Shown: positions 7,163 to 49,525, numbered from the stretch's first letter. The stretch: DNA of 64,000 bases from Leptonemataceae bacterium (GCA_965227295.1 OZ245742.1:1024001-1088000), one strand, 5' to 3'. Program-made: numbers and translations. Notes: generated by a model not told the origin, from the letters alone.

Positions 7163-7298
7163 CGAGGAAGACGCCGTTCCGGTCCGCTCAACCCCGCTCC
7201 CCGGCATAACCTCCGCCCGTCGGCTGGAACCAGCCGTACCCATACTCTTTTTAACCCACGCTCACCGCAACTTACACCACGATTCGGGACGCTGGCGA
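7163..7298. repeat. Dispersed non-coding repeat, copy A (partial)
   Basis: Colinear with reverse complement of ~10582-10717 and with ~49401-49525; 7175-7209 vs 49401-49435 = 29/35. Confidence 0.85.
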
Positions 7299-7300
7299 TC

Positions 7301-8077
7301 TCACGGATAAAACGTCGCCTGCACGCTGACCCCGTGCTCGTACTCCTGCTCACTCGCGATCGACACGGGCGCGGCCACGCTTAAGGCGAAATCATCTTCG
7401 ATCTTAAAGCGCAAACCCGGCGCCACCTGTGTGGAAAACAGGCGTCGTTCCTTAGGGGCGAAGCGCATCTTACGCTGAAACTCCGCGAACACATCGAAGC
7501 CGTCGAAGACCAGGCCGGCTTCGGCTTCCCAGACCCAGGCACGATCGAAGGTCTCCTCTTCGGTTTCGCGAAAGCGACTGTTCGTCTGCACGTTTCCGCG
7601 AATCGCCGTGGTGATATAGACCGGGCCCGGGCTCCAGGACAGACCGAGACGCGATTCGAAACGGCCCAGGCGATTGCTGCCGATCCCGCGCGCGTCGTTT
7701 CCCGTGGGCCATTCAATCTCCACGCCGGCGGCTCCGTAGAAGTCCCGCCAGCGCAGACCGAAGCGGCCGCCCGTGGCGATGTTGTCGAGATGCGAGCGAT
7801 CGCCGTCGATGGAGTCGTCTTTGCGCGTAACCGGGACGTCGAAGTAGACCGATCCCCAGGATGCGTAGGCGTATTCGGCGAGCAAGGTCGCGGTGGTCGT
7901 GCGTTCGAAGGTTTCGTTTTCTTCGGATTGAAAGTGCGCACCGGCCAGGCGCACACGATGTCGGGGCAACAGCGTCTGCGTGAATGCGCCGTCCGGCGGT
8001 AACTGTCGCTCGGCGTAAGTTAGCGAGGGAGCCGCTGTGACGGCGAGCGTTGCAATCGCAAGCAGGTTTCGAATCAC
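7301..8077 (-). CDS. Exported protein, probable outer-membrane beta-barrel (transporter-like)
   Basis: Signal peptide, alternating amphipathic strands, EWPTG motif, aromatic-rich C-terminus. Confidence 0.6.
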   Translation of the reverse strand: MIRNLLAIATLAVTAAPSLTYAERQLPPDGAFTQTLLPRHRVRLAGAHFQSEENETFERTTTATLLAEYAYASWGSVYFDVPVTRKDDSIDGDRSHLDNIATGGRFGLRWRDFYGAAGVEIEWPTGNDARGIGSNRLGRFESRLGLSWSPGPVYITTAIRGNVQTNSRFRETEEETFDRAWVWEAEAGLVFDGFDVFAEFQRKMRFAPKERRLFSTQVAPGLRFKIEDDFALSVAAPVSIASEQEYEHGVSVQATFYP

Positions 8078-8994
8078 CAGCTACCTGAAGCTCCACCGCC
8101 GCCGAAGCTGCCGCCCCCGCCCGAGAAGCCCCCGGAGAATCCGCCGCCGCCACCGCTGGAAAAACCACCGCCGCCGATCCGCCCACCGCTGAGGCCGATG
8201 ACCGTGATAATGAACATGAGAACCCCGTAGAACAGCGCGGAGGCGAGGCCCACCGAAAGAATCACACCGATCACGAACGTCACCACGCCGAGACCGCCCG
8301 AGAAGAAGAAACGCCAGGGAAACGGAATCGCGCGGAAGAAAGCGCCGATCAGAAAGGCGCCGATGAATACGATCGAGCTGAACTTGTCGGCGGCGTCGGA
8401 GGTTCCGCCGTCACCGCCGCTCGAGGTTTGCGCCGGTTCGGGCAACGGCTCGTCCATGATCGCGGCGGCGATGACGTCCACCCCGGAACGAATGCCGGTG
8501 TAGAATTCGCCGTCGCGAAAGTGCGGCACGATATGTTCACGGATGATGCGACTCGCCAGCGCGTCCGGGATGGCGCCTTCGAGACCGTAACCAACTTCGA
8601 TGCGCAGACGCCGATCTTCTTTGGCGACGAGCAGAATCACACCGTCGTCGACTTTCCCGCGACCGATCTGCCACTCTTCGGCCACGCGAATGGAGTACTG
8701 CTCGATGGCCTCGGGTCCCGTCGTCGGCACGATGAGTACGACTACCTGAGCACCCTTGTCGACTTCCAGGCGGCCGAGCACGGCGTCCAGTTCTCGGCGC
8801 TCGTTTTCCGTTAACGTTCCGGTAAGATCAGTTACGCGCCCGCGCAGAGGCGGCACCGCGACTTCTTCCAGTAATGCAGGATCAGCCAGGCCGTCGTCCT
8901 GGGCCGCCACGGGCAGGGCGATGAGGGACAACAGAAAAACCGCGCCGAAAAAAACGGAGCGGGCGATGCGGGGTTTGTTCAGTCGATCAATCAA
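8074..8994 (-). CDS. TPM domain (YgcG-like) membrane protein
   Basis: RVTDLTGTL, DDGVILLVAKEDRRLRIEVGYGLEG, Gly-rich tail FSGGGGSFGGGGASGSW. Confidence 0.92.
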   Translation of the reverse strand: MIDRLNKPRIARSVFFGAVFLLSLIALPVAAQDDGLADPALLEEVAVPPLRGRVTDLTGTLTENERRELDAVLGRLEVDKGAQVVVLIVPTTGPEAIEQYSIRVAEEWQIGRGKVDDGVILLVAKEDRRLRIEVGYGLEGAIPDALASRIIREHIVPHFRDGEFYTGIRSGVDVIAAAIMDEPLPEPAQTSSGGDGGTSDAADKFSSIVFIGAFLIGAFFRAIPFPWRFFFSGGLGVVTFVIGVILSVGLASALFYGVLMFIITVIGLSGGRIGGGGFSSGGGGGFSGGFSGGGGSFGGGGASGSW

Positions 8995-9613
8995 AATTCA
9001 CTTCGGGCGGTTTGGAGATGGCCTCTTCGTTCTCAGGTTGGAACGTGGGCTTCGGTGTGTAGCCGAACATGCGGGCGGTAATGTTGTTCGGAAACGTACG
9101 CACGTCCACGTTGTACTGCTGTACGGCTTTGATGTAGCGCATGCGGGCGACGGCGATGCGATTCTCGGTACCTTCCAACTGCGCCTGGAGATCACGAAAG
9201 TTCTCGTTGGATTTGAGCTGCGGATAGTTTTCCGCCACGAGCAACAGTCGCGACAGGGCGGAGCCCATGGACGACTGCGCCTGCTGAAACTTCGCGAAGG
9301 CGGCCGGATCGTCCAGCAATTCCGGCGTGGCGTTGATGCCGCCGACGCGAGAGCGAGCCTCGGTGACTCTAATGAAGACTTCTTTCTCCTGGTCGGCAAA
9401 GGCCTGCACAGTTTTCACGAGGTTGGGAATGAGGTCGTAGCGGCGCTGGTACTGGTTCAGAACCTCGGCCCAGGCAGCCTTCACGGCTTCGTCGTTGGCC
9501 TGGATCTGGTTGTAGCCGCAGCCGCTCGTCGAGAGGGCGAACGCAAAGACGGCTGCGATGAGCACCGCCCGGCGAAGATGCGAAAAAGATCTGGAAACGA
9601 TGGTTGCTGTCAT
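8987..9613 (-). CDS. lemA: LemA family lipoprotein
   Basis: SGCGYN lipobox, YQRRYDLIPNLV, ENYPQLKSNENF, LEGTENRIAVAR; start moved to ATG 9613 because the longer ORF overlaps mscS. Confidence 0.92.
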   Translation of the reverse strand: MTATIVSRSFSHLRRAVLIAAVFAFALSTSGCGYNQIQANDEAVKAAWAEVLNQYQRRYDLIPNLVKTVQAFADQEKEVFIRVTEARSRVGGINATPELLDDPAAFAKFQQAQSSMGSALSRLLLVAENYPQLKSNENFRDLQAQLEGTENRIAVARMRYIKAVQQYNVDVRTFPNNITARMFGYTPKPTFQPENEEAISKPPEVNFD

Positions 9614-9688
9614 GCGATGAGTCATTCTGCCTGAATTCCAGCGACGCAAACATCGCCGGTCAATCAAAATTCCAGGCACCCGGACTTT

Positions 9689-10576
9689 ATGAAATTCCAA
9701 TCCATCCTCGAACGCACGAAAGACCAATTCATGTCCCAGGGCAACGACTGGCCGGAGCTCGTCGGCCTGCTCCTCTACTCGCTCATCCTGATCGTTTTCA
9801 TCCTCGTCGTGCGCTTTCTCGTGCTGCGCGTCGTTCTCCGGCGCACGAGCGACCGCCTGGAGCGTCAACGCTGGCGGCTTACGAGCATGTACATCAGCTT
9901 CTTCCTGACGTTGCTGCTGCTCACGCCGGTGTGGCTGTCTTCGCTGAGCGGTGTCCTGGCCATCCTCGGCCTCTTCGGCGCCGGTGTGTTGATTGTTACC
10001 AAAGAACCGATCCTGAACATCGTCGCCTGGTTTTACATCATGACCCGCCGGCCGTTTACGATGGGCCATCGCGTTGCGGTCGGCGATCTCATCGGCGACG
10101 TGATTGAAATTCGGTTGCTCGACTTTACCATGATCGAGGTCCTGCCCCGGGAGCGCGGCGGCCAGAGTACCGGGCGCATTATGCACGTACCCAACGGGCT
10201 GGTGTTCACCACGGCCACGGCGAATTCCAGCAAAGAGTTTTCGTTCAACTGGAACGAGGTTCTCGTGCCTTTAACACCGGAAAGCGACTGGAAAAAGGCG
10301 GAGCAGATTCTTTTGACCATCGCCAACAAAACCATCGAAGCGATCAGCCGCGAGGACCAACGCATCCGCCACGCCGAGGAGGTACACGCCATCCAGTACA
10401 CCATGCTCACGCCGTCGGTCTACATCGAATTCCGGGCCGGCGCCGTAGTTTTATTTTTGCGGCACTTAACGGAGCCCCGCCGCGTCCGAGACATGACGGA
10501 CCGCATCTGGCGCGCGATCCTGACGCAGTTCGCCGAGGAGCCGAACATTACCTTGAATACGGAGGCGTCGGAGTGA
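9689..10576 (+). CDS. Small-conductance mechanosensitive channel (MscS family)
   Basis: TM helices, RRPFTMGHRVAVGDLIGDVIEI, STGRIMHVPN. Confidence 0.88.
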   Translation: MKFQSILERTKDQFMSQGNDWPELVGLLLYSLILIVFILVVRFLVLRVVLRRTSDRLERQRWRLTSMYISFFLTLLLLTPVWLSSLSGVLAILGLFGAGVLIVTKEPILNIVAWFYIMTRRPFTMGHRVAVGDLIGDVIEIRLLDFTMIEVLPRERGGQSTGRIMHVPNGLVFTTATANSSKEFSFNWNEVLVPLTPESDWKKAEQILLTIANKTIEAISREDQRIRHAEEVHAIQYTMLTPSVYIEFRAGAVVLFLRHLTEPRRVRDMTDRIWRAILTQFAEEPNITLNTEASE

Positions 10577-10579
10577 AAG

Positions 10580-10814
10580 GTTCGCCAACGACCCGAATCG
10601 TGACGTAGGTGGCGGTCAGCGTAGATTAAGACTTTTATGGGCACGGCTGGTTCCAGCAGATGAACGGAGGTTGTGCCGGGGAATGTGGTAAGGCGCACCG
10701 GAACGGCGTCTTCTTCGTAAGGGACGTTTTCGAAGCTGAGTCGCAATGCGACGTCCGGGTCGAGGCGGACAGTCTTAACAAAACGAAATTCCACAACTCC
10801 GAAGAGCCGTAGCC
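10580..10814. repeat. Dispersed non-coding repeat, copy B
   Basis: Reverse complement of 10773-10813 matches 49300-49340 at 38/41; reverse complement of 10671-10705 matches 49401-49435 at 33/35. Confidence 0.9.
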
Positions 10815-11969
10815 TGTACTAGCCAACACCCGATCTGACACTCCTGCCTGTCAGATATGATCAGGTCGATACCTGATGCTGTTTATGCAGCATCTTTTCA
10901 CGCGCCACGGCGATGGATTCAGCGAACGTTTGCGCCGGCGTCTTGCCGAAGCAGTACTTGCCGCTGTGCGTCCGTTCCTGGTTATACTCGAGCATCCATT
11001 CATCCAGATCGGCTTGCAGCTCCTCGATGCTTGAGTAAAGTTTCTTGCGAAACGCGACGGCGTAGAATTCTTCCTGAATCGTCTTGTGAAAGCGTTCGCA
11101 GACGCCGTTCGTTTGCGGATGCCGCGCTTTGGTTTTGGTGTGATCGATGTCCTCCATCGCGAGGTACAACTCGTACTCGTGATTCTCCGGCTTGCCGCAG
11201 TACTCCGTGCCGCGATCGGTGAGCACGCGCAGCAGCGGGATGTTGTAGTCCGCGTAGAACGGCAACACACGATCGTTCAGCAAGTCGGCCGCCGTCAGTG
11301 CGTTCTTGCGATCGTAAAGTTTTGCAAAGCCGACCTTAGCGTACGTGTCGATGAAGGTCTGCTGGTAGATCCGCCCCACGCCCTTGATATTGCCCACGTA
11401 ATACGTGTCCTGCGAGCCCAGATAGCCGGGGTGGTGCGATTCGACCTCGCCGTGCGCTTCTTTGTCCTGGCGGCCTTTCTCAAGCGCCGCGACCTGCGCC
11501 TCGGTGAGGATGATCCCCTCCTGAGCCACGCGGGCTTCCAGAGCCTTCAGACGCTTCTTGAACGTCTCCATGTCGTGCCGCAACCAGACCTGACGCACGC
11601 CGCCCGGTGAGATCGAAACGCCGCGCTTGCGCAGCTCATTCGACACGCGCAATTGACCGTGCGCCGGCTTCTCGAACGTGAACTCGATCACCGCGTCTTC
11701 CACATCCGCCGGAATCCGGTTCTTCTTGTTCGGCTTGCGCCGCGTGAGATCCTTGAGAGCTTCTTCCCCGCCGGTCTCATACAACCGCTGGTAGCGGTAG
11801 AACGTATCGCGTGATACGCCCATCACCCGGCAAGCCTCTGCAACGTTATTCAGAGTGCGGGCCAGCCTCAAGATACCCACCCGGTGCTTTACGATTTTTT
11901 GTTCTGCTGTCATCTCTTTCCTCCGATACAAATTATATCGGAGTGTCAGATGGAATCTTGACTATTTCA
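10815..11969 (-). mobile_element. IS481-family insertion sequence, complete
   Basis: Imperfect terminal IRs tgtactagccaacacccgatctgacactcc (from 10815) vs tgaaatagtcaagattccatctgacactcc (minus strand from 11969), 23/30; 7-bp direct repeat CGTAGCC at 10808-10814 and 11970-11976. Confidence 0.93.
10861..11931 (-). CDS. IS481-family DDE transposase
   Basis: N-terminal HTH (ACRVMGVSRDTFYRY), GYLGSQDTYYVG, LTDRGTEYCG, PQTNGVCERFH; start may be the second Met (MTAEQK). Confidence 0.95.
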   Translation of the reverse strand: MYRRKEMTAEQKIVKHRVGILRLARTLNNVAEACRVMGVSRDTFYRYQRLYETGGEEALKDLTRRKPNKKNRIPADVEDAVIEFTFEKPAHGQLRVSNELRKRGVSISPGGVRQVWLRHDMETFKKRLKALEARVAQEGIILTEAQVAALEKGRQDKEAHGEVESHHPGYLGSQDTYYVGNIKGVGRIYQQTFIDTYAKVGFAKLYDRKNALTAADLLNDRVLPFYADYNIPLLRVLTDRGTEYCGKPENHEYELYLAMEDIDHTKTKARHPQTNGVCERFHKTIQEEFYAVAFRKKLYSSIEELQADLDEWMLEYNQERTHSGKYCFGKTPAQTFAESIAVAREKMLHKQHQVST

Positions 11970-12067
11970 CGTAGCCAGAACATCCCCTCTTCCATTCCGC
12001 AGCATACATTGTGATTCTCACAGCAGACTTCGCGAACTACGGCTCTTGAATACCGGAAACGCGCGAT

Positions 12068-13294
12068 TTATTCGCCGGATGCGGCTTCGCTGGTCCTTAC
12101 TTTGATTTCACTGTGCAACGTGCGATGCACCGGACACTTGTCGGCGATCTCCATCAACTTCGCGCGCTGCGCGTCGTCCAGGTCGCCGATCAATTCCACC
12201 TCGCGGTCGATGACGTCGATCTTGCCCTGTTTCGTTTCGCAGTTCTCGCAATCTTCGGCGTGCACCTTCGCGTGATCCAGATGCACGCGAATATTTTTCA
12301 CCGGCCACTTCTTGCGATCCGCGTACATTTTGATCGTCATCGAAGTACACGTTCCCAGCGCGGCGAGCAATAGATCGTACGGGTTCGGCCCCTGGTCCTG
12401 GCCGCCGACGCTCGTGGGTTCGTCGGCAATGAGACGATGCCGGCCGAGGCGCACGTCGCTGGTATACGGAACTTCGCCGGTACTGACACCAACCTGATGA
12501 CCCGTGCGAAAATCCGGCGCGTCCTCGTCGATGCCGTCCAGGTATCGTTGAGACCAGGCACCGATCATCTGCCCGGCGAACAGCGAATCCTGCTTCTTGC
12601 CCATGAGATGATCCGCCCCGTCCAGGCCGATGAAAGACTTCGGGTGTTTCGCGGCGACAAAGATCTTCGTGGCGTTGTTGATGCCCACAACGTTGTCGAT
12701 GGGCGAGTGCAGTACGAGCAGGGCCTTCTTTAACTTATGCACACATTCTTCTAAGGTTTGCTCGCGGATGTCTTCCAGCAACTGCTTCTTGATCTTAAAC
12801 GGTCGGCCCTCGATCTTCACCTCGGCCACGCCCCGCTCTTCGATGTCTTCCAGCGAATTCTGAAAGTGCTTCTCGATGTGTTCCGGCGACGCCGGCGCGC
12901 CGATGGTCACCACCGCCCGGGCGGACGGTACGTGTTCCGCGGCGCGCAGGACCGCGGCCCCGCCCAGGCTGTGGCCGATGAGAATCTGCGGCGGTGCGTA
13001 GTTCTTTGCCAGGTACTCGGCCGCCTCGACCAGGTCGGCGACGTTCGAGGAGAAGTTCGTATCGGCAAATTCGCCCTCGCTTTCACCGAGGCCGGTAAAA
13101 TCAAAACTCAGCACGCCGATGCGGTACTCGCCCAGGCCCTGGGAGATGTTGCGGATGGCGGTCAGATTCTTGTTACACGTAAAACAATGCGCGAAGAGCG
13201 CGTAGGCCACGGGATCGCCGGTTTCCGGCAGCTCCAGGCGCGCGGACAATTTTTGACCGGAGGAGTTTTCGAACGTAAGTTTTTCGATCTTCAT
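12068..13294 (-). CDS. Bifunctional alpha/beta hydrolase - OsmC family protein
   Basis: ALFAHCFTC, GHSLG nucleophile, C-terminal OsmC domain (GPNPYDLLLAALGTC, KCPVHRTL). Confidence 0.92.
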   Translation of the reverse strand: MKIEKLTFENSSGQKLSARLELPETGDPVAYALFAHCFTCNKNLTAIRNISQGLGEYRIGVLSFDFTGLGESEGEFADTNFSSNVADLVEAAEYLAKNYAPPQILIGHSLGGAAVLRAAEHVPSARAVVTIGAPASPEHIEKHFQNSLEDIEERGVAEVKIEGRPFKIKKQLLEDIREQTLEECVHKLKKALLVLHSPIDNVVGINNATKIFVAAKHPKSFIGLDGADHLMGKKQDSLFAGQMIGAWSQRYLDGIDEDAPDFRTGHQVGVSTGEVPYTSDVRLGRHRLIADEPTSVGGQDQGPNPYDLLLAALGTCTSMTIKMYADRKKWPVKNIRVHLDHAKVHAEDCENCETKQGKIDVIDREVELIGDLDDAQRAKLMEIADKCPVHRTLHSEIKVRTSEAASGE

Positions 13295-13316
13295 AATTGG
13301 CTATATTATACATTGC

Positions 13317-13961
13317 ATGAACGAAAACAAGCGCAGGAAACGCATTCTTCTCATACCCGGCCTCGGCGGCTCCGGACCGGAGCACTGGCAGAGCCACTGG
13401 CATGCCGAAGCAGATCGCGCCCGCGAAATCCTGAGCGTCGGCGCGAAGAACCTCGTCTTCGATCGTGTGGAGCAGGATGATTGGGATCGACCGGATCGCG
13501 AACAATGGCTGCAACGCCTCGACGAGGCGGTGAAAGAGGGGCGAGAAGCCGGCGACGAACTCATCCTGGTCCCGCACAGTCTCGCCGTCTCACTGACGGT
13601 CTTCTGGGCCCGGGAACTCGCCGATCGAGATTCCGAACTCGCTGCGGATAAGGCGGCCCCGCCCCGGGGCTTTCACGGTGTTGTCGGCGCACTCTTCGTC
13701 TCGCCGAGTGATACGGAGGCCCCGGATTTCCCGCCGGAAGCCCGAAGCTTCGCGCCGATGCCCCTGGACTTCGCGCCGCCGTTTCCCATCATCGTCGCCG
13801 CGAGCGAGGACGATCCGTTCGTGAAATTCGAACGCGCGGAGTACTTCGCCGGGCAATGGAAAGCGCACTTGCGCAACGTCGGCAGCCTGGGACACATCAA
13901 CGCCGAATCCAGGCTGGTGCTATGGGAACCCGGCCTGCGTCTGCTCGCAGAATTGTTGTAG
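13317..13961 (+). CDS. RBBP9/YdeN family alpha/beta hydrolase
   Basis: PGLGGSGPEHWQSHW, HSL nucleophile, ASEDDPFV, GHINAES. Confidence 0.88.
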   Translation: MNENKRRKRILLIPGLGGSGPEHWQSHWHAEADRAREILSVGAKNLVFDRVEQDDWDRPDREQWLQRLDEAVKEGREAGDELILVPHSLAVSLTVFWARELADRDSELAADKAAPPRGFHGVVGALFVSPSDTEAPDFPPEARSFAPMPLDFAPPFPIIVAASEDDPFVKFERAEYFAGQWKAHLRNVGSLGHINAESRLVLWEPGLRLLAELL

Positions 13962-14000
13962 TAAAGTTCTTTAAGCATACGTCAAATTAACTTCTACGCT

Positions 14001-15194: not shown

Positions 15195-15209
15195 GCCGGG
15201 TAACCGGCT
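15194..15209. terminator. Short GNRA-capped hairpin between convergent genes
   Basis: agccgg-gtaa-ccggct at the rtcB stop; no clear U-tract. Confidence 0.4.
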
Positions 15210-15217
15210 TGCCCCGC

Positions 15218-30375: not shown

Positions 30376-30792
30376 CTATTTCTTTTTCCTGGCAGCCTTC
30401 TTTTTCGCGGCCCGTTTCTTTTTCTTCGCTGCCTTCTTCGCGGATTTGCGTGCCGGCGTCCCCGAACGCACCGCGGCCTCGTAGGCCTTGCGTGCCCAGG
30501 TAAGCATGACTTCGCGATTCTCCAGCGCGTCGTCCGGAGCGCGGTGATAGGACATGGCAACGGGCTTCGGCCGATTGTAGAGCGTGAACGGCTCGAGGTC
30601 CAGTTCCTCAAAATCCGCGCGATTGCCGTCGTCTACCTTCAAGTACAACACATCGTCGGCGACGAGCCCGAACATCTTGCTGCCGCGGTAAATGCCGAAG
30701 CCCCCGAACATGCGTTTCGCCTGCACGGCGCCCAGATCGGCCATCAGGTCCAGGAGGTGATCGATGAATTCGTTGTTGTGAGCGGTTTTCAT
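30376..30792 (-). CDS. TfoX N-terminal domain protein with Lys/Ala-rich tail
   Basis: KRMFGGFGIY, MFGLVADDVLYLKVD, MSYH; tail KKAAKKKKRAAKKKAARKKK. Confidence 0.88.
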   Translation of the reverse strand: MKTAHNNEFIDHLLDLMADLGAVQAKRMFGGFGIYRGSKMFGLVADDVLYLKVDDGNRADFEELDLEPFTLYNRPKPVAMSYHRAPDDALENREVMLTWARKAYEAAVRSGTPARKSAKKAAKKKKRAAKKKAARKKK

Positions 30793-32717: not shown

Positions 32718-33248
32718 TTAGAAAATGCCCAGGCCGGCGTAGAACGGCACCGGCAACACGCTGATGACGGCGGTGGCCGCGAGGAAAACGAGGAACGCCT
32801 TCACCGCCTGGAAACGATACACGATGCCGATGATCACGAAGGCCGTAATCAGATACCAGATCCCCGCCAGGCCGCTGATGATCCGACCCACGTCGCCGAG
32901 ACCCGGCGCCGCCGCCGCAATCAACGCCACGAAGATGAGCGAGGCAAACGACAGCGGCCGAAACACGGACCAGTAGTCGGCGCCCTTGCGCCCCGCGATC
33001 ATCGCGAAGACGTGGATTAAGCCGGCATACACGAAGATGCCGACGATCAATCCTCCCACCACGGAAAGCGGCAGGGGACCGAAACCGGCGAACAACGCGA
33101 ATCCCACGGCAATGAGAATGCCCGTAACGATCATGATGACAATGCCCGCCAGGGTCGCCCCGTTCCGCCCCGAAACCGCCTGGATTGTTTTGTTGTTCAG
33201 CGCAAGAATGCGCACGGCTTCCTGTAGTTCTTTTAAGAAATGCTGCAT
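32718..33248 (-). CDS. Membrane protein (Yip1-like)
   Basis: Five hydrophobic segments, co-oriented and closely spaced in operon. Confidence 0.6.
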   Translation of the reverse strand: MQHFLKELQEAVRILALNNKTIQAVSGRNGATLAGIVIMIVTGILIAVGFALFAGFGPLPLSVVGGLIVGIFVYAGLIHVFAMIAGRKGADYWSVFRPLSFASLIFVALIAAAAPGLGDVGRIISGLAGIWYLITAFVIIGIVYRFQAVKAFLVFLAATAVISVLPVPFYAGLGIF

Positions 33249-33254
33249 GATTGT

Positions 33255-34268
33255 TTATGCTCCGATCTTTATGCAAACCTTGCCGAAATGTTTACCGGCT
33301 TCAAGATACTGAAAAGCGGCGACCGAGTCCTCGAACGGAAAGACCTTATCGATGACCGGGTGCAGTTCGTGCAACGCGCAGGCCCGCTGTAGATCTTCGA
33401 AGCCCGCGCGGCTGCCCACCAGCACGCCCTGGATGCGAATGTTCTGCATGAGCACCGGCGTCATGTTGACCGATTGCGCGCCGCCGCCCGCGAGCACGCC
33501 GATCAGACTGATGTGTCCGAAGGGTTTCGTGCTCATGATGGACTGGTCCAACGTACCCGCGCCGCCGACTTCGATCACGTGGTGCGCGCCGGTCATTTTG
33601 GTAATGCGACGCACTTCCCGGGACCAGTTGCTTTTCGTTTTGTAATTGATGACGTGATCCGCGCCGAGCTGCTGCGCGCGTTCGAGTTTCTCGTCGCTGC
33701 TGGACGTGATGATTACCTGCGCGCCCTGCAGCTTCGCAAGCTGCAATGCGAAGATGGACACACCGCCCGTGCCGAGGGTAAGGACGACGTCGCCGGGCTG
33801 CGTGCCGGCCTGCATCATCGCCGACCACGCGGTGAGGCCGGCGCAGGGCAACGTGGACGCCTCTTCGAAACTCATGTAGTCCGGGATTTTGATAACACCG
33901 GTTTCCGGAAAAACGCGGTATTCCTGCAACGTTCCATCCAGCGGCCCGCCAAGAGACGAGCGCAGGGCGTCGAAGTCCGGCTCGCCGGAGATCCAGCCCT
34001 GGGCGAAGTTGCCCACCACGCGATCGCCTTCTTTCCAGAGCTTCACGCCCTCGCCCACGGAGACCACCTCGCCGGCACCATCGCACAGCGGGATCAGCGG
34101 TTTACGCATGCGCGGATTGTACTCGCCGATGACCGTAAGGTAGTCGCGGTAGTTAAGCGAGGCCGCGCGCATGCGCACGAGGATTTCACCCGGGCCGACC
34201 TCGGGCTCCGGCCGCTCCGTTAATTTGAGATGATCGAAACCGAATTCCTGTATTTCAAATGCTTTCAT
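33255..34268 (-). CDS. NAD(P)-dependent MDR (zinc-type alcohol dehydrogenase-like) oxidoreductase
   Basis: [36 protein letters not shown]; start MKAFEI (34268). Confidence 0.92.
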
Positions 34269-40872: not shown

Positions 40873-40982
40873 GTCGATCAGCCTGGCACCCCCGACGATG
40901 CTGTCCACCGGAAGTCTCGCCATTGACATGCGCGTCCATGGATTGCTTGCGCCGTGCGACGGTCGCGAGCGAATGGCACGCT

Positions 40983-42146
40983 ATGGCGGATTACCGCAAC
41001 AAAAACGAACTGCTGAAAGGCGCCGCCGAAGTCCAGGCGACCTACAAAAACTACCGCAGCAGCCGAAACATCGACGCCCAGATTGCGGAGATGCAGGACC
41101 TGGGCGCGGACATGGAGCGCCCGGATTTCTGGGACGACGCGGACCGCGCCCGGGACGTTTCCGTAAAAAAAAGCGAGCTGGAACGCCGCATTGAGCCCTG
41201 GCAGATATTGAAGCAGGAACTCATCGATTTCCCGGACCTGGTCGAACTCACCATCGAAGAGTTCGACGATGAAAAAGCAGCCGTGGAGAGCCTGAGCGCC
41301 GATCTCAATGCCCTTGAGGAAAAACTCGAAGGCCTGCTCATGACCGAGGCCCTGGCCGGCGAGGACGATCGTCGCAACGCCCTCGTGTCAATTAACTCCG
41401 GAGCCGGCGGCACCGAGAGCCAGGACTGGGCGGACATGCTCTTGCGCATGTACTTGCGCTGGTTCGAAAAGAAAGGCTTCCGCGTGGAAACGCTGGACCA
41501 CCAGGATGGGGAAGAGGCCGGCATCAAGAGCGCCGCGTTGCTCGTGAAGGGCGAGAACGCCTTCGGTTACCTCAAGTCGGAGAACGGCGTGCATCGCCTC
41601 GTGCGCATCTCCCCCTTTGACTCAAACAAGCGCCGGCACACCTCGTTCGCCTCGGTCCACGTTGCTCCCGACATCGATGAGGACATCGAGATCGACATCG
41701 AAGACAAGGACCTCAAGGTCGACACCTACCGCGCCTCCGGAGCCGGCGGTCAGCACATCAACAAAACCGACTCGGCCATTCGCATCACGCACATTCCCAC
41801 GGGCATCGTCGTGCAGTGTCAGAGTGAACGTTCGCAGCACAAGAACCGCGCTACGGCCATGAAGATGCTGAAGGCTCGCCTGTACGAAATCGAAAAAGAC
41901 CGCATGCGCGAGGACGCGGAAAGCCGCGCCGGTGAAAAACGCGACGTGGCCTGGGGTTCACAAATCCGCAACTACGTCTTTCATCCGTACAAGCTCGTCA
42001 AAGACCTGCGCACCGGCTTCGAAAGCGGCAACGTCGACGCGGTCATGGACGGCGAACTGGAACCGTTCGTGGATGCGTATCTCAAAGACCTGGCGGGCAT
42101 CTGGAAAAAACCCGAGGGCGCGGGGAATGTAGAAGACCAGGTTTAG
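40983..42146 (+). CDS. prfB: Peptide chain release factor 2
   Basis: GAGGTESQDWA, SPF anticodon-mimic (RISPFD), GAGGQ; continuous frame from ATG 40983. Confidence 0.96.
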   Translation: MADYRNKNELLKGAAEVQATYKNYRSSRNIDAQIAEMQDLGADMERPDFWDDADRARDVSVKKSELERRIEPWQILKQELIDFPDLVELTIEEFDDEKAAVESLSADLNALEEKLEGLLMTEALAGEDDRRNALVSINSGAGGTESQDWADMLLRMYLRWFEKKGFRVETLDHQDGEEAGIKSAALLVKGENAFGYLKSENGVHRLVRISPFDSNKRRHTSFASVHVAPDIDEDIEIDIEDKDLKVDTYRASGAGGQHINKTDSAIRITHIPTGIVVQCQSERSQHKNRATAMKMLKARLYEIEKDRMREDAESRAGEKRDVAWGSQIRNYVFHPYKLVKDLRTGFESGNVDAVMDGELEPFVDAYLKDLAGIWKKPEGAGNVEDQV

Positions 42147-42422: not shown

Positions 42423-42489
42423 TGCTTTAGCCTGATGAGTGACACCTTCATTGAACATGACCCGCTACACTTTCCAGAAGTGTACTTTT

Positions 42490-42607
42490 TTTGGACGCCC
42501 CGCCGCGTTGCGGCGGCCGGGCTTTCCAGGGCTCCGGCTTCGCCTTCGGTCCTCCGCGCTACGCGCTCCGGACTCGCGCCTTGCGCGATCCTTTCAATCC
42601 CTGGCGT
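42490..42607 (-). ncRNA. Structured repeat resembling the Flavo-1 RNA motif, copy 2 (inverted)
   Basis: Minus strand gccagggATTG...GGAAAGcccggc with the same hairpin order as copy 1. Confidence 0.55.
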
Positions 42608-42663
42608 GAAGAGCCTCACCTCTAACTTTTCCCAATCTGCACTTAAACATGGGCCATCAAGGA

Positions 42664-44520: not shown

Positions 44521-44573
44521 AGGCTGTACTTCGATCGAAGCGGACCAGAGTACAAGAAGAAAACGACCAGGCC

Positions 44574-45482
44574 TTACAGCACCGTGCCGAGCACGTAGAA
44601 CGTGGGAATGAAACCGATGCTGCGGGAGTCGCGGCTGTGAGAGCGATTGTCACCCATGACCAGGAGCGTATGCGGCGGTACGGTGCCGCGGCGACCGGCC
44701 CCCTCGAGGGCGGAGACCCGCACATCCACCGGGAGCAGGTTCAGTTCCAGCGGCAACGGATACACGGCGGGCTGGGCGAAGATCGGGCGGGGATCGGTGC
44801 GCGTGCCCGGCGGAAGATACGGCTCGTCCATGAGTCGCTCGTTGATGTAAACATCACCACCAACCAGCTCAAAACGATCTCCGGGCAGGCCGATGACCCG
44901 CTTGATGAAATAGTCCTCCCGTCGCCGGGACATGCCCGGATAGCGAAAGACCACGATCTGCCCCTGACGAAACAGGCCGAAACCGTGGACCGGCAGCTTG
45001 CCGGTAATGCTTACCGGTCCGAAGGGAAACGATAGCTGTGGTAGATTGATGCCGGTACTGAGCTTCTCGATCCAGATGACCTGACCGCTTTCGTAGGTGG
45101 GAGCCATGCTGCTGCCGGAGACCTCCACCCGCTCCACCAGGCAGATTTTCACGTGCAGGGCGGCGAGGACCAGGGTCAGCCCCACCACGAGGACCTTGAA
45201 CGGACCGGCCGGTCCCAGTCCCTCGGGGAGGTTCAGATTTTGAGCCAGGGTCTCCAGGATCGGCGTGCCGGCGAAAAATAGCAGTGCCCCCAGAATTCCC
45301 GCGGCGAAAAACGCCCAGGCCAGGTAGCCGTTACCACTGCCCGGAAGCCCCGGGCGGGCCGCATTGGCGAAAAACCAGCCGGCATAGAGGGACAAAAGTG
45401 CGCTCAGGACGCGAAAGCGAAATGAAAATGATTTTACAGAGGGCACCGCTTTCCCGAATTTGGCCGGTAAGTCTCCCTCCAT
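44574..45482 (-). CDS. lepB: Signal peptidase I
   Basis: GSSMAPT, FIKRVIGLPGD, MGDNRSHSRDSR; ATG 45482 preceded by AAGGAG. Confidence 0.9.
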   Translation of the reverse strand: MEGDLPAKFGKAVPSVKSFSFRFRVLSALLSLYAGWFFANAARPGLPGSGNGYLAWAFFAAGILGALLFFAGTPILETLAQNLNLPEGLGPAGPFKVLVVGLTLVLAALHVKICLVERVEVSGSSMAPTYESGQVIWIEKLSTGINLPQLSFPFGPVSITGKLPVHGFGLFRQGQIVVFRYPGMSRRREDYFIKRVIGLPGDRFELVGGDVYINERLMDEPYLPPGTRTDPRPIFAQPAVYPLPLELNLLPVDVRVSALEGAGRRGTVPPHTLLVMGDNRSHSRDSRSIGFIPTFYVLGTVL

Positions 45483-45504
45483 TGCTCCTTTCCCCTCAAT
45501 ATAC

Positions 45505-47508
45505 ATGGCCGAAGAAAACGTCTTACAGCTCGAATTGGAAAAGCTGGATGTCGCCGGGCTGAAGCGAATCGCTCAACTCTGGAACATTCCCAAGACCGGT
45601 AAAGATAAAAAGACGATCATCAAGAACGTCGTCACCGGTATGCAGGACGAGTTTCATCTCAAAGGTGTCCTCGAAAAGCTTTCCGCCACTCAGGTGACGA
45701 TCTATACGTCGATCCTGAAAAGCAAGTCCAGCATTCTAACCCTGGGGGAAATTTCACGCAAAATTTCCATGCCCCCGGTAAACACGGAGATGGAGCTGGG
45801 TGTACTCAAGCGCTACTTCCTGGTGTACCAGCGGAAGAACCGCGAACGCCTCACGAACAACCTCGATAAGTACTACTATTATCCGGAGAGCGGGCAGAAC
45901 GTCCGCCTGGATTCCAACGACAAGGGACAGAAGTTCCGGCTGAACCTCGGCAAGGTTCTCCAGGCCCAGGAAAAAATGCCGCCGGAATGGAAGAAGGTCC
46001 TCGGCGGGCGTACGTCCTCCAACGGTTCCTTCACCGCCGAAGCCGCCGCCGCGGCGATGGAAAGTGAGACCCTCGATCAGATCCTTGAGGCCCTGGGTGA
46101 GAACGAAAGAGACCTGCTGTTGGAATGTTTCCAGCAGGGCGGCATTCTGGAGATCAACCGCGCCCGGGAATATCTCCAGGGTCGTAAGGCGAAGTGGGAT
46201 CAGATCATCCGGCAGTTGAACGAACTCGGCCTGCTCCTGGACGAGTACTACATCGACGAAAAGTTCGTGCGGGTCCTGGTGTTGCCCGCCGAGGTTTTCA
46301 CGCACCTTCAGGATTTTCCCATCCTGCCGCCGCAGAAGAAGGGCACCCGGCGTCGCCAGGAAAAGGTCGCCTCCAACGATCTCGACTTCTATCTCAATCT
46401 CAAGAAGATGGTGGTCTACATCAGTCGCAAGGGCCTGAACCTGGCGAAGTCCGGTAAGATCAAACAAATCGATCTTAAGGAAACGGAGAACCGCCTGCTG
46501 CGGCCGGACATCGGCCTGTTCATCGAAAAGTCTCAGATCTACCAAATCGAACTGCTGCTGCCGGTGATGCGTCTGCTGGATATTGTCCGTGTCAAACGGG
46601 ACGATGTCGTTCTGCGCAACAACTACGACAAAGTACTCGAAACCGAGATCTTCACGCTCATGGATCAGGTCATCAAAGAGATGGCCGGCGCGCGCAATCG
46701 TCGCGTCCGCTACGAGGACGTCTTCGAACCCATGTACGTGCCCTTCTTTGAGAAGTCCATGTTCGATGAGTGCGTGAACCTCATTCAAAAGCGCGGCCGC
46801 GCCATGTACTTCGTCGTCATGGCGACGATCATCCGCGAGAAGCTACTGCTGGCGAAGGGCTTTCGCATTAAGAACTTCCAGCAGGCTTTACAGGACCTGC
46901 GCAAAGAAATCACAAGTGCACTGTTCTACCTGCAACTGCTGGGCCTCATTAGCGTCGAGTATCCGGATCGCTGGGTAACGTTGAGCGAACTGGGCCTGCA
47001 CTATCTCAAAGGCAAAACCCTGGAACGCAATGACGAGGCCGGCGGCGTCATCATCAACCCGGACCTCTCGCTGATCGCCATCCCGGAAAACGTTTCGATC
47101 AAGGGCATCCAGGTGCTGAAGTCCTTCGCCGAAGTGAAGACCTTCGATAACGTCTACACGTTCCAGATTACCCGGGAATCCTTTCAAGAAGGTCTGCTGC
47201 TGAAAAGCGATCCCGAGGAGTTCATCGACCTGTTGCGTCGTACGAATCGCGCGGAGCTGTCCCAGAACCTGCTCTTTTCCATTGAAGATTGGTCGCGCAA
47301 TCTGCCGCTGATCACGATCACCGACGAGTGCGTCGTAGTGCAAACCCAGGACCCCAATCACATGGAACTCCTGCTCGGCCAGATCTCCGGCAAGAAAATC
47401 GTGTCGCAAAAGATCAGCCCCACGACGATCCTCATTGACGCGGACAAGATTTACGAAACGATCAACTACGCCGAAAAATTAAACTTGATCGTGAAGTTGA
47501 TCCGCTGA
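45505..47508 (+). CDS. Helicase-associated (XPB-related, Helicase_C_3-like) domain protein
   Basis: C-terminal IINPDLSLIA...TFQITRESF..G....L...LSQNL...IEDW pattern; no Walker motifs. Confidence 0.65.
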   Translation: MAEENVLQLELEKLDVAGLKRIAQLWNIPKTGKDKKTIIKNVVTGMQDEFHLKGVLEKLSATQVTIYTSILKSKSSILTLGEISRKISMPPVNTEMELGVLKRYFLVYQRKNRERLTNNLDKYYYYPESGQNVRLDSNDKGQKFRLNLGKVLQAQEKMPPEWKKVLGGRTSSNGSFTAEAAAAAMESETLDQILEALGENERDLLLECFQQGGILEINRAREYLQGRKAKWDQIIRQLNELGLLLDEYYIDEKFVRVLVLPAEVFTHLQDFPILPPQKKGTRRRQEKVASNDLDFYLNLKKMVVYISRKGLNLAKSGKIKQIDLKETENRLLRPDIGLFIEKSQIYQIELLLPVMRLLDIVRVKRDDVVLRNNYDKVLETEIFTLMDQVIKEMAGARNRRVRYEDVFEPMYVPFFEKSMFDECVNLIQKRGRAMYFVVMATIIREKLLLAKGFRIKNFQQALQDLRKEITSALFYLQLLGLISVEYPDRWVTLSELGLHYLKGKTLERNDEAGGVIINPDLSLIAIPENVSIKGIQVLKSFAEVKTFDNVYTFQITRESFQEGLLLKSDPEEFIDLLRRTNRAELSQNLLFSIEDWSRNLPLITITDECVVVQTQDPNHMELLLGQISGKKIVSQKISPTTILIDADKIYETINYAEKLNLIVKLIR

Positions 47509-47522
47509 GACTCTCACGCGTT

Positions 47523-47954
47523 ATGCGCACTGTTCCGGCGATTCTCTCTCTGTTCTTGCTCACGCTCTGCGTGCACTGCGCCGGTGAGCGTCGTCTGGAA
47601 TTCGACGGCTTCGAACTCAGCAGCAATCCCGGATCCACGCCGCGCTCCATTCCGGAAGAGTTTCTGTATCCTAACGCGAAGCAGATCTACAGCGGCGAAT
47701 ACACCCGCAATCCGTACCGCAGCACGCGCGAGGGCGCCCTGGTCCTCGAAAGCGTGGACAGTCTCGATTTGATCCAGTCCTTTTATCTGCTGCGCCTCCA
47801 GGAAGGCGGCTGGCAGATCATCCAGAGCCGTGACGAAGACGGCGAGGTCCTGCTCATGGCCGAGAATCTTTCCCGCCGATTGTTCACGGTCGTGCTTCGC
47901 GACGAAGATCCCGTACGCATCAAGCTCTATATCAAAACTGCCGGACTGCGCTGA
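47523..47954 (+). CDS. Hypothetical lipoprotein
   Basis: Signal peptide ending LCVHC; stop overlaps xseA start. Confidence 0.65.
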   Translation: MRTVPAILSLFLLTLCVHCAGERRLEFDGFELSSNPGSTPRSIPEEFLYPNAKQIYSGEYTRNPYRSTREGALVLESVDSLDLIQSFYLLRLQEGGWQIIQSRDEDGEVLLMAENLSRRLFTVVLRDEDPVRIKLYIKTAGLR

Positions 47955-49282
47955 TGGCCGTTGCTCGCGCTGCATCGGAAGGCGAACCGGGCCGTCCGGA
48001 GGGTCTCGATGTCTGGACTCCCAGCCGGCTCAATCTTACTGTTCGGGATCGTCTACAGGGTGATCCCGGCCTGCAGGGCATCTGGATCGAAGGCGAGGTC
48101 TTCAATCTTAATTATCACACCAGCGGGCACGTTTACTTTTCGTTGAAAGATGCGCAGTCCGCCGTGCGCTGTACGTTCTTCCGCAACGCGAATCAGCGTC
48201 ACAAACACATTCGTCTACAAAACGGCATGCGCATCCTGGCGGCGGGCGGGCTTTCGGTCTACACGCCCCGCGGCGAGTATCAGTTCAACGTGCAGCGGGT
48301 GATGCTGGCCGGCGAAGGCGAGCTGCGGCTCAAGATCGAAGAACTGAAGAAACGCCTGCACGCCGAGGGCCTGTTCGATCCCGCACGCAAACAGGCGCTG
48401 CCGTTCCTCCCGACCACCGTCGGCGTGGCCACGGCCCCCACCGGCGCCGCCGTAAGAGACATTCATCGTACATTAAGGCGGCGCTTCCCGAATGTAAACA
48501 TTCTGCTGGCCCCCTGCGTGGTGCAGGGCGACGACGCCTCCGTTTCCATTGTAGAAGCCATCGAGGCCCTGAACGATCCGCGCTTCGGCGTGGACGTAAT
48601 CATTGCCGGGCGGGGCGGCGGATCTTTTGAGGATCTCCTGCCCTTCAACGACGAGGCCGTCGTCCGTGCTTACGCAAACTCGCGTGTGCCGATCGTCAGC
48701 GCTGTCGGTCACGAGATCGATCATCCCCTCAGCGATCTCGCCGCCGACGTCTACGCCCCGACGCCCACCGGCGCCGCGGAGATGGTGGTCCCGGTCTACG
48801 AGGATCTGGTCGAAACCGTCGATGACTGCGGCCTGCGCCTGCGCGTGGCCCTGCACAATCGTCATCGCAGTGAGCGAGATCGCTTAAATCGCATCTTTAC
48901 ATCGCGCGTGTACGAAAATCCGCAGAGCATGTTTCAGGAGCGCGCGCAGAGCCTCGACATTCTTTCGCGCGAGCTGCGCCAGGCATTGCAGGCCCGCGTC
49001 GCCCGGGCCCGCAGCGAATTGCAGAACAGCGCGGGCATGTCCATGTTGTTCGAACGCAATCTCTCGCGATTCGCGCGGCGCTTTTCCATTGCCGACGAAC
49101 GCCTGCAGAACTTCAGCCCGCTGGGAACGTTGCAGCGCGGTTTTGCCGTGGTGCGTAACGCGAAGAAAGACGTGATCCGGCGCGCGAAAGATGTCCGCGT
49201 CGGCGAAGAGTTACAGGTTTTGTTGGGGGAAGGTGAGTTGTGGGTGAAAGTTGAGCAAAACTCGGGCGAGACTCAAAAATAA
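47954..49282 (+). CDS. xseA: Exodeoxyribonuclease VII large subunit
   Basis: SGHVYFSLKD, TGAAVRD, GRGGGSFEDL, SAVGHEID, APTPTGAAE, SPLGTLQRGF. Confidence 0.95.
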   Translation: MAVARAASEGEPGRPEGLDVWTPSRLNLTVRDRLQGDPGLQGIWIEGEVFNLNYHTSGHVYFSLKDAQSAVRCTFFRNANQRHKHIRLQNGMRILAAGGLSVYTPRGEYQFNVQRVMLAGEGELRLKIEELKKRLHAEGLFDPARKQALPFLPTTVGVATAPTGAAVRDIHRTLRRRFPNVNILLAPCVVQGDDASVSIVEAIEALNDPRFGVDVIIAGRGGGSFEDLLPFNDEAVVRAYANSRVPIVSAVGHEIDHPLSDLAADVYAPTPTGAAEMVVPVYEDLVETVDDCGLRLRVALHNRHRSERDRLNRIFTSRVYENPQSMFQERAQSLDILSRELRQALQARVARARSELQNSAGMSMLFERNLSRFARRFSIADERLQNFSPLGTLQRGFAVVRNAKKDVIRRAKDVRVGEELQVLLGEGELWVKVEQNSGETQK

Positions 49283-49299
49283 ATAAGGGGAGTCTTTTT

Positions 49300-49525
49300 G
49301 CTACGGCTCTACGGAGTTGTGGTATGTCGTTTTGTTAAGATCGCTGTATTCGACCCGGACGTTAGTCAGCGACTCAGCTTCGGGAAAAGTGTCTCCAATT
49401 CGTTCCGGTCCGCCCTACCACATTCCCCGGCACAAATTCCGTTCGTCGGCCGGCACCAGTCGTACCCATAAAAGGCTTAACATACACTGACCGCCACTTA
49501 TGCAGCGATCCAGGCGTCCACGAAC
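49300..49525. repeat. Dispersed non-coding repeat, copy C
   Basis: Colinear over ~225 bp with the reverse complement of 10580-10813, one ~7-nt indel. Confidence 0.9.

Follow-up and report, generated by a model that had tools for sequence, protein, structure and literature searches.

Three short look-alike stretches of DNA had been noticed in a 64-kb window of the genome of an uncultured, spirochaete-related bacterium of the Leptonemataceae (the window being the whole stretch of 64,000 nt analyzed here), each lying beside a stop codon between convergent genes, and the question that they raise is what kind of element they represent. The original prediction was that they belong to a dispersed non-coding family with many more copies genome-wide, formed either of structured RNAs from 3' untranslated regions or of a non-autonomous mobile element directed to gene 3' ends. 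A unit HMM and a three-way alignment confirmed that the three copies, referred to as A, B and C, exist close to where they had been placed, with matches far above chance (nhmmer E from 1e-37 to 2.5e-69). The block identities (38/41 and 33/35 for B versus C; 29/35 for A versus C) agreed with a re-reading of the sequences, and stop codons were found at 7301, 10576 and 49533 as claimed. The features of the window are given below, M2, M3 and T being modules of the repeat unit.

7069..7133, no strand: long perfect palindrome with a stem of ~26 bp, read from the sequence
7141..7317, plus strand: copy A, a partial unit (unit-HMM 92-261; nhmmer unit E 1e-37)
7159-7299, plus strand: module M2 of copy A (M2 match E 7.6e-34)
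10578..10815, minus strand: copy B, main part (unit-HMM 16-250; nhmmer E 2.5e-69)
10580-10721, minus strand: module M2 of copy B (M2 match E 9.1e-43)
10733-10815, minus strand: module T of copy B (T match E 4e-23)
10815..11970, minus strand: insertion sequence splitting copy B, not a member of the family (Pfam, blastn)
11994..12075, minus strand: copy B, 5' part (unit-HMM 243-325, module M3; unit E 1.3e-14, M3 E 1.1e-15)
49285..49529, plus strand: copy C (unit-HMM 3-252; nhmmer E 2.6e-57)
49286-49381, plus strand: module T of copy C (unit/module HMM scan)
49401-49525, plus strand: module M2 of copy C (unit/module HMM scan)

The 3' end of copy A adjoins the stop codon (7301-7303) of a convergent gene of 258 amino acids in the ORF calls. 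The palindrome upstream of it directly follows the stop codon of a carboxyltransferase gene and takes the position that a palindromic module, P, occupies elsewhere, just ahead of M2; no match to the P HMM was obtained for it in the module scan of the window. Copy B is a single unit interrupted by a 1156-bp insertion sequence (10815-11970), and a fourth piece in the window (11994-12075, minus strand), missed previously, belongs to it. Its 3' end lies 1 nt from the stop of an mscS-type gene (10576), and its 5' part overlaps the stop of an OsmC/hydrolase gene (12068-13294, minus strand; Pfam). Copy C occupies the spacer between the stop of xseA (49282), which it follows after 2 nt, and the stop of a 76-amino-acid gene (49533). 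Both junctions of copy C were matched with 0 differences by contigs from the public sequencing runs X1 and X2, a match that does not count as independent support because these runs are possibly the source samples. Among the neighboring genes, the mscS-type assignment (9689-10576) held, with a match to Pfam MS_channel_2nd, whereas the genes that had been named 'barrel' and 'WGR-like' gave no Pfam match.

The insertion sequence within copy B encodes a 356-amino-acid transposase with HTH and rve_3 domains (10861-11931; Pfam HTH_29 4e-17, rve_3 2.1e-12), is bordered by a 6-bp direct repeat and is present in six copies in the genome at 94-100% identity (blastn). In the sister loci searched, the mscS-type gene has no ortholog of the transposase gene as a neighbor. 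This IS481-type element was considered as the mobilizer of the family and rejected, its five other copies being located away from the repeats.

The expectation of many more copies was fulfilled on a genome-wide scale. A unit of ~327 nt, with a period of 323-329 nt, gave 316 nhmmer matches at 115 loci, covering 73,061 bp or 1.2% of the 5.94-Mb genome. Most copies are arranged head-to-tail, with a single orientation per array and at most 7.6 units in a row, and the others are solo; the tandem and modular nature of the family had been missed because the window holds partial solo copies only. The modules follow the cyclic order M3 (~75 nt), T (~100 nt) and M2 (~145 nt), with the optional palindrome P of ~60 nt ahead of M2. 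The corresponding transitions were counted 187 times for M3 to T, 177 times for M2 to M3 and 156 times for T to M2, and 44 of the 48 P modules lead into M2. The T module consists of a T-run, a G·U-rich hairpin and a U-rich tract. Any two copies are on average 0.77 identical, but conservation reaches 90% or more in many blocks and is highest at unit-HMM 172-203, and such blocks alternate with variable patches. A CRISPR array does not fit this arrangement, the entire 327-nt period being conserved between units and unique spacers being absent. Identity is 0.826 within arrays versus 0.769 between arrays, and the nearest relative of 60 of 168 units is an array-mate, a pattern of similarity that would be expected from local growth combined with dispersal.

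The non-coding nature of the family was borne out by tests of reading frame, indels and periodicity. Unit lengths are not multiples of three, and the 3-base periodicity of variation ranks only 37th among 164 frequencies. It could be supposed that the units once encoded a repeated domain of ~100 amino acids and are now pseudogenes: the forward strand is poor in stop codons in two of the three frames, 58.9 kb of arrays contain 165 open frames of 80 codons or more, and a single frame is open over unit-HMM 46-240 in 24 of 140 copies. However, which frame is open varies among copies, the indels do not come in threes (the blocks of the first pair are shifted in frame relative to each other in 60/140 copies, and those of the second pair in 53/140) and codon-position periodicity is absent. 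Furthermore, the sole DNA matches to the M2 core outside the genome are chance overlaps of 38 nt with unrelated genes. Protein coding was rejected on the grounds of shifting frames, non-triplet indels and missing periodicity, and decay from a coding domain is regarded as very improbable. The outside matches came from a metagenome scan with the M2 core, which returned five loci, all 38-nt partial matches and taken as chance; four of these are the same stretch, in frame with a protein when read by eye, with no other module and no similarity to the present genome.

The predicted preference for gene 3' ends was also supported. Gene contexts were taken from a crude in-house ORF caller, by which 18 of the 115 arrays were themselves overlain by a predicted gene. 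By these calls, 53/115 arrays are located in convergent spacers, which make up 18.4% of all spacers (p 1e-11), and divergent spacers are avoided (8/115 arrays, p 7e-4). No recurrent gene family was found next to the arrays among 221 flanking proteins. The tightness with which the copies abut stop codons results mostly from the shortness of the spacers: the median convergent spacer in the genome is 37 nt, and next to arrays a median of 29.5 nt of DNA remains. The further claim that a single end of the element abuts stops proved to be wrong, since stops are found at both ends of each of the three copies; the palindrome upstream of copy A starts immediately after the upstream stop, and the far piece of copy B overlaps the stop at 12068. 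The same polarity relative to three unrelated genes, which had been emphasized, is uninformative, because either orientation in a convergent spacer sets both ends next to stops. In spacers between genes of the same direction, the two orientations occur 30 versus 24 times (p 0.50).

A possible role at these sites is suggested by the T module, in which the forward strand, but not its complement, carries a terminator-like hairpin and a U-tract behind it. The forward strand folded with a mean energy of -8.4 kcal/mol in 171 of the 191 T modules examined, compared with -0.6 for the reverse complement and -4.1 for shuffled sequences, and the 13-nt tail after the hairpin contains 7.8 T on average. The hairpin of copy C reaches -15.2 kcal/mol (z -4.69), and a terminator scan detected the T hairpin in every unit of one array. 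A strand-defined stem-loop with a U-tract and, by our own ORF calls, enrichment at convergent 3' ends place the family beside the SPRITE-like terminator class. Since every unit brings such a Rho-independent-terminator-like hairpin, the arrays are predicted from their sequence to act, probably, as transcription stops or 3'-end stabilizers for the upstream gene. Termination as the selected function is nevertheless disfavored by the absence of co-orientation in same-direction spacers. A search for RNA runs containing the sequence returned none.

The elements may be 3'-UTR structured RNAs, as proposed; a strand-specific terminator-like hairpin is present, but no convincing compensatory base changes were found among the paralogs. 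In a listing of helices across the paralogs, substitutions mostly altered one side of a pair (G-C/G-U) and double changes were very rare, and the forward and reverse consensus folds score alike. In three long-form sister copies, compensatory changes are confined to an inserted hairpin, and of the 19 T copies from sister species 2 fold at z <= -2, most folding no better than shuffles. Two approaches were abandoned: single-sequence folds of copy B, which did not surpass shuffled sequences for one strand or the other (z -0.39 and +0.38), and a mutual-information search for RNA pairs, which was swamped by subfamily structure and misalignment of the P palindrome.

The hairpins and the alternation of conserved blocks with variable patches would also suit arrays of small RNA genes in which each unit is its own transcription unit, a promoter in M2 driving an RNA of ~170 nt that runs through M3 and ends at the hairpin and U-tract in the T module of the following unit. 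On this view, antisense transcription into the convergent gene would start from those solo copies whose last module is M2. The conserved block at unit-HMM 172-203 loosely resembles an ECF-type -35/-10 pair when the consensus is read by eye. However, the ECF-like motif (GGAAC-N16-18-CTTAA) has 141 occurrences in arrays against 11 elsewhere, and five proteins downstream of the motif, judged by eye from their translations, show no resemblance to a sigma factor: they appear RecX-like, McsB-like, sigma-54-activator-like and S13-like, with one unplaced. The idea of an ECF-sigma promoter in M2 was consequently dropped. No sigma-70-like promoter was seen on either strand of an array, covariation is absent, and 53/115 arrays end in M2 without a subsequent terminator. 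Small RNA genes are thus considered an unlikely explanation, though the least unlikely of the alternatives weighed here.

Known families and known mobilizing machinery were then compared with the repeat. Rfam gave 0 matches in the window at gathering thresholds and, at E up to 1 across three array-bearing loci, one weak RsmW match outside the array; no plasmid or phage matches to the repeat were found. The statement that terminal inverted repeats and target duplications are lacking was upheld by an inverted-repeat search, in which copies B and C and one full unit contained short internal pairs only, and by a flank-word test, in which the 15-nt flanks of the 115 arrays shared words to the same extent as mismatched-flank controls; the features of a MITE are thus missing from both searches. 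The Y1 (RAYT) transposase profile PF01797, expected for REP/BIME/REPIN elements, had 0 matches in the genome (93.55% complete), with matches in 6/14 known genomes in the control search, and the TnpB profile PF07282, expected for IS200/IS605 elements and TnpB/IscB guide RNAs, also had 0 matches.

The arrays are circularly permuted, beginning and ending at many unit positions and in all modules, and this permutation, together with the absence of target duplications and inverted ends, may recall a satellite-like element that spreads as multimers. Such an element would be copied by a rolling circle from a circular RNA of ~327 nt or single-stranded DNA, possibly using a group II intron reverse transcriptase, and its concatemers would integrate at gene ends. 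The genome carries 10 RVT_1 genes, several of which are identical copies. In addition, the forward strand is the leading strand in 45/115 arrays (p 0.025) and in 16/53 of those in convergent spacers (p 0.0055), a bias that depends on an origin inferred from GC skew alone. Against this explanation, array ends are not uniform but cluster near unit-HMM 250 (38/115), units within an array differ by ~16% where fresh concatemers should be near-identical, and the Rfam search revealed neither ribozymes nor group II intron RNAs in arrays. No reverse transcriptase is encoded among the flanking genes; four arrays (47-53 kb) lie 6-20 kb from two reverse transcriptase genes. We regard the satellite-like explanation as improbable. 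A slightly smaller chance still is given to its fullest form, a self-propagating non-coding replicator whose multimers are re-inserted at gene ends; if true, bacteria would possess an equivalent of the retrozyme or satellite amplification of eukaryotes, one that would account for the bias in replication strand, the permuted ends and the fact that neither target duplications nor inverted repeats are present.

Comparison with related genomes shows that the family is restricted to this species. The spacer orthologous to that of copy C is empty in both sister species, being 32 nt in one (G001) and 68 nt in the other (G002). A T-core pattern was counted 176 times in the present genome, 12 times in G002, 9 times in G001 and 0-3 times in 38 other genomes of the family; in 400 genomes from the phylum, it occurs about as often as chance would predict. 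The two sister species contain the T core only, in ~10 copies each, and modules M2 and M3 were not found in either of them. A scan of a genome collection with the T core returned 13 loci, six in the two sister MAGs and seven singletons in unrelated taxa, the latter number being close to a chance expectation estimated by hand. The empty site and the dispersal indirectly favor the suggestion of a mobile element; the enzyme that would mobilize it was not found.

The reading that we prefer, with a confidence a little better than even, is a species-specific, non-coding, modular intergenic repeat, selfish and non-autonomous, of the REP/BIME, BOX, SPRITE and MIRU kind. The ~100-nt T core would be the older part, recruited in this species into a composite unit that then expanded. 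New spacers might be reached by some trans-acting route, possibly single-stranded or recombinational, and arrays could grow locally through unequal recombination or replication slippage between units. Persistence at gene ends is proposed to follow from the fact that insertions there leave promoters intact. Counting against the selfish repeat, no pair of copies exceeds 98.4% identity, a value that gives no sign of recent activity. The missing mobilizing enzyme, the scattered array ends and the absence of target duplications or terminal repeats that would define an insertion event also belong on that side.

On this preferred reading the repeat is a new family within a known general kind of mosaic. 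REP/BIME elements are high-copy extragenic G+C-rich palindromes combined with short motifs in mosaic clusters, biased to convergent spacers and with proposed roles in mRNA stability or termination (PMC3184786; bioRxiv 10.64898/2026.03.23.713779); those of enterobacteria and pseudomonads thereby resemble the present family as intergenic mosaics with a convergent-spacer bias. REP units are short (~35 nt; REPIN-type palindromes, ~20-40 nt) and alternate or invert in orientation, whereas the unit here is ~327 nt and strictly head-to-tail. REP elements are tied to RAYT (Y1) transposases. Here, only the optional P (48 copies) is palindromic, and the genome has no Y1_Tnp gene. The BOX element of Streptococcus pneumoniae is modular, with one module tandemly repeated (PMC3184786; cf. 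PMC3049150). Compared with SPRITE and BOX, the unit here is larger, and it is the complete set of three modules that recurs, up to 7.6 times in a row, across 115 loci; no sequence relationship was seen in searches covering Rfam, plasmids and phages. Mycobacterial MIRUs form minisatellite-like tandem arrays over many intergenic loci of one genome, with units of ~40-100 bp that are found within operons and may contain small, overlapping open reading frames. The present arrays are likewise dispersed, tandem and intergenic, but their units are 327 nt, non-coding and mostly in convergent spacers. Neisserial NIME units, of 50-150 bp, are bounded by 20-bp dRS3 inverted repeats and tied to pilin loci. 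Here, bounding inverted repeats are absent and the flanking genes are mutually unrelated. As in the present family, NIMEs form arrays of repeat units in intergenic DNA (PMC3184786).

The spread of dispersed repeats without a cognate transposase is poorly understood, and this family is unusually large-grained, with a three-module unit occupying more than a hundredth of the genome of one species. The low-copy ~100-nt core in the two sister species, set against the expansion described here, provides a natural before-and-after comparison for the expansion of a 3'-end element. In practical terms, the arrays inflate ORF calls, as in the arrays overlain by predicted genes, and are bound to fragment short-read assemblies: in runs X1 and X2, contigs break and word depth spikes, rising 9-24-fold within conserved blocks. 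They could also serve as variable-number markers for strain typing in this uncultured lineage.

The three look-alike stretches of the window, copies A, B and C, belong to a large, non-coding, modular and species-restricted repeat family located at gene 3' ends. Alignment of the three confirmed that they are colinear, their positions and adjoining stop codons (7301, 10576 and 49533) were verified, and the block identities of the original prediction agree with a re-reading of the sequences. When copies A, B and C were compared by blastn with the source genome, which is assembled as a single contig of 5,938,550 bp with 59.8% G+C, 831 alignments were obtained that merged into 313 places, many of them 320–340 bp apart. 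A single full period served as the seed of an nhmmer profile, which after one iteration gave 316 matches; these were grouped into 115 loci and total 73,061 bp (1.2% of the genome). At least 1.5 units are present at 69 of these loci and at least three units at 27, and the longest array contains 7.6 units (5,079,790–5,082,285). Copies A, B and C are partial, solo members of the family, which usually occurs as head-to-tail arrays; neither a full unit nor a tandem array is present in the window. The sole tandem repeat reported by TRF in the window has an 18-nt unit (3.3 copies, 68% matches, 30380–30438). Both junctions of copy C were reproduced with 0 differences in contigs from two public sequencing runs, possibly of the source samples; these contigs break within the conserved blocks, which show a 9–24-fold increase in word depth.

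Full-length units (n = 83) measure 323–329 nt, the commonest lengths being 327 (n = 13), 328 (n = 10) and 325 nt (n = 10). Separate HMMs were built for three consecutive unit parts, the modules M3, T and M2, and for the palindrome P, which is seen at many array starts. M2 was found 244 times, T 224 times, M3 218 times and P 48 times, with the neighbour pairs M3→T (187), M2→M3 (177) and T→M2 (156) defining the order. Of the 48 P modules, 44 precede M2, and none closes an array. Arrays start with M2 (37), M3 (37), P (23) or T (18) and end with M2 (53), T (38) or M3 (24); their ends concentrate around position 250 of the profile of one full unit (unit-HMM), with 38 at 240–262 and the rest dispersed. 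A scan of the window with the module HMMs resolved copies A and C as follows, and copy B and its insertion are listed with them.

7159–7299: M2 of copy A, preceded by a palindrome
49286–49381 and 49401–49525: copy C, T followed by M2
copy B: a complete M3–T–M2 unit that runs from unit-HMM 243 round to 250 and is interrupted between M3 and T
10815–11970: insertion sequence of 1156 bp, splitting copy B at the start of its T module

Just before copy A, a perfect palindrome (7069–7133; ∼26-bp stem) adjoins the carboxyltransferase stop; its location is that of P, yet the P HMM gave no match there. The insertion sequence within copy B, bordered by a 6-bp direct repeat, encodes a 356-amino-acid HTH_29/rve_3 transposase. 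Six copies (94–100% identity) exist in the genome, and since the other five lie away from arrays, its link with copy B is incidental. No transposase ortholog was found beside the mscS-type gene at the sister loci searched.

Protein coding was rejected: the units do not come in multiples of three nucleotides, the open frame varies among copies, and a three-base period is absent from the variation along the unit (among 164 frequencies, 1/3 is 37th in power). The forward strand of the units has few stop codons in two frames, as decayed coding repeats might, and this origin is nevertheless scarcely credible: one frame is open over unit-HMM 46–240 in just 24 of 140 copies, and the offset in frame from one conserved block to the next differs from zero in 60/140 and 53/140 copies.

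The arrays are unevenly distributed among the classes of intergenic spacer, as defined by gene calls from an in-house ORF and codon-usage caller (4,790 genes, 88% coding) that are crude and approximate.

Array-bearing spacers by orientation of the flanking genes
Convergent: 53 of 115 arrays (p = 1e-11); 18.4% of all genome spacers
Divergent: 8 of 115 arrays (p = 7e-4); 18.4% of all genome spacers
Same direction: 54 of 115 arrays; 63.3% of all genome spacers

The element had been predicted to start right after a stop codon and to have the same polarity relative to its neighbouring genes. The polarity does not hold: among the arrays in same-direction spacers, 30 share the orientation of the genes and 24 oppose it (p = 0.50), so the element has no polarity relative to genes, and convergent spacers are uninformative because both array ends meet stop codons whichever the orientation. 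Adjacency to stop codons is real, but no special relation to them need be invoked. Convergent spacers have a genome-wide median of 37 nt, and in the 48 array-bearing convergent spacers without an overlapping predicted gene a median of 29.5 nt is left uncovered by the array (5' side, 17.5 nt; 3' side, 6 nt). In spacers this short, abutment would be expected of any insertion and is no evidence of stop-codon recognition. The true bias is towards gene 3' ends and away from promoter regions; a bias of this kind is reported for REP and SPRITE elements in a passage of PMC3184786. Pfam searches (E ≤ 0.001) gave no match for the genes at 7301–8077 ('barrel') and 49533–49763 ('WGR-like').

Each unit carries a forward-strand terminator-like hairpin. 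It lies in the T module, which consists of a T-run, the hairpin and a U-rich tract; the lower stem does not vary and has many G·U pairs, and the tip differs among copies, some having a UUCG loop and others loops of 7–9 nt. Both anchors were identified in 171 of 191 T modules; in these, the stem region has a mean folding energy of −8.4 kcal/mol as forward RNA, compared with −0.6 for the reverse complement and −4.1 for shuffled sequences, and the 13-nt tail contains a mean of 7.8 T. The copy C hairpin has a z of −4.69. The folding predicts a Rho-independent-terminator-like signal on the forward strand, and this hairpin is the sole strand-specific structural evidence obtained. It might also be expected of arrays of small RNA genes, an explanation that we regard as unlikely. 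No convincing covariation was found beyond the T hairpin, an exhaustive helix listing giving mostly one-sided changes; consensus folds are equally good on the forward and reverse strands; and whole copies fold no better than shuffles. Conservation is uneven, with a mean pairwise identity of 0.77 yet long runs of columns at ≥90%, which points to specific blocks, notably the nearly invariant M2 blocks at unit-HMM 115–135 and 172–203, that may be constrained or homogenised. Cumulative GC skew places the origin and terminus approximately at its minimum (1.16 Mb) and maximum (4.08 Mb), the two genome halves having mean skews of +0.027 and −0.030. With this skew-based origin, the element's forward strand coincides with the leading strand in 45 of 115 arrays (p = 0.025) and in 16 of the 53 arrays in convergent spacers (p = 0.0055), a bias that is suggestive of a strand-specific step, provided that the origin is correctly placed.

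When copy B was searched by blastn against 41 relatives, the family was found in the source genome only, and the T part matched weakly in two same-genus sister genomes (G001 and G002), where M2 and M3 are undetectable. A T-core pattern (≤2 mismatches) matched 176 times in the source genome, 12 times in G002, nine times in G001 and 0–3 times in each of 38 other genomes of the taxonomic family, with 0–2 matches for the reversed-pattern control. A longer T-core pattern (≤2 mismatches) gave 169 matches in the source genome and chance-level results across 400 genomes of the phylum, six of which had one two-mismatch match each. The sisters carry the T core as a single ∼100-nt element at gene ends, with conserved flanking motifs and a variable middle that at times has extra hairpins; most of these copies fold no better than shuffles, and the 21 sister copies are too few and too variable for an alignment. 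The T core is an older, low-copy core. Searches of Rfam, plasmids and phages gave no match to the family. Five metagenome matches to the M2 core were dismissed as 38-nt chance overlaps; four of them (contigs L077–L080) fall in one and the same stretch, readable in frame as protein, and their likeness to M2 looks coincidental.

Synteny with both sister genomes is retained at loci A and C. The spacer orthologous to that of copy C, between xseA and a 76-amino-acid gene, measures 32 nt (G001) or 68 nt (G002) without trace of the element, compared with 250 nt in the source genome, 245 nt of which are element; locus C is one clear filled-versus-empty site. The spacers orthologous to that of copy A (L048:3118–3302, 185 nt, in G001; L049:3118–3341, 224 nt, in G002) contain two to four head-to-tail units of ∼68 nt, each comprising a short hairpin and an A+T-rich stretch. 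These repeats are unrelated to the ∼327-nt family and have no match in the source genome, so the same spacers attract different repeats in different species. Proteins of the source genome and the sisters share only 62–80% identity, a divergence too great for exact insertion points. Mean unit identity is 0.826 within arrays, 0.769 between arrays and 0.843 for adjacent units, with a maximum pairwise identity of 98.4%; the closest relative lies at another locus for 108 of the 168 units that have an array-mate. These likenesses fit in-place duplication and dispersal or gene conversion alike.

Neither target duplications nor terminal inverted repeats were found at the arrays, no neighbour gene recurs among the 221 proteins flanking them, and a genome search found neither a Y1 transposase nor a TnpB zinc-ribbon domain. 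The genome contains ten RVT_1 genes, several of which are present in identical copies, including 32821–33507, 40883–41494, 765390–766001 and 3743265–3743951 (loci L011–L016); a 456-amino-acid frame scores identically at four places, and frames of 624 and 472 amino acids do so in pairs. The RVT_1 genes look like group II intron reverse transcriptases of apparently active introns. The unit HMM has no match on the reverse-transcriptase genes themselves, but four arrays (47–53 kb) lie 6–20 kb from two of them. Spread of the family as multimers made by rolling-circle or retro-copying is quite improbable.

Among known systems, SPRITE elements are similar in function (terminator-like, at convergent gene ends), BOX elements in being modular, and BIME, NIME and MIRU elements in layout, as dispersed clusters or arrays. 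Unlike REP/REPIN sequences, the family has no RAYT gene and does not consist of short palindromes; unlike MITEs, it lacks inverted ends and duplications. It did not show the tested features of IS200/605 derivatives, Rfam RNAs or CRISPR. On balance, the family probably consists of selfish, non-autonomous repeats of the REP/BIME, BOX, SPRITE and MIRU kind, which would colonise spacers without promoters and whose arrays would lengthen through unequal recombination. The host would tolerate the arrays and might benefit from them as terminators or 3'-end stabilizers. Such intergenic repeats are already familiar as a general phenomenon; the sequence family is new, as judged by a limited literature search and the Rfam, plasmid and phage searches, and its combination of a three-module 327-nt unit, strictly head-to-tail arrays, 115 loci and no cognate transposase is unusual.
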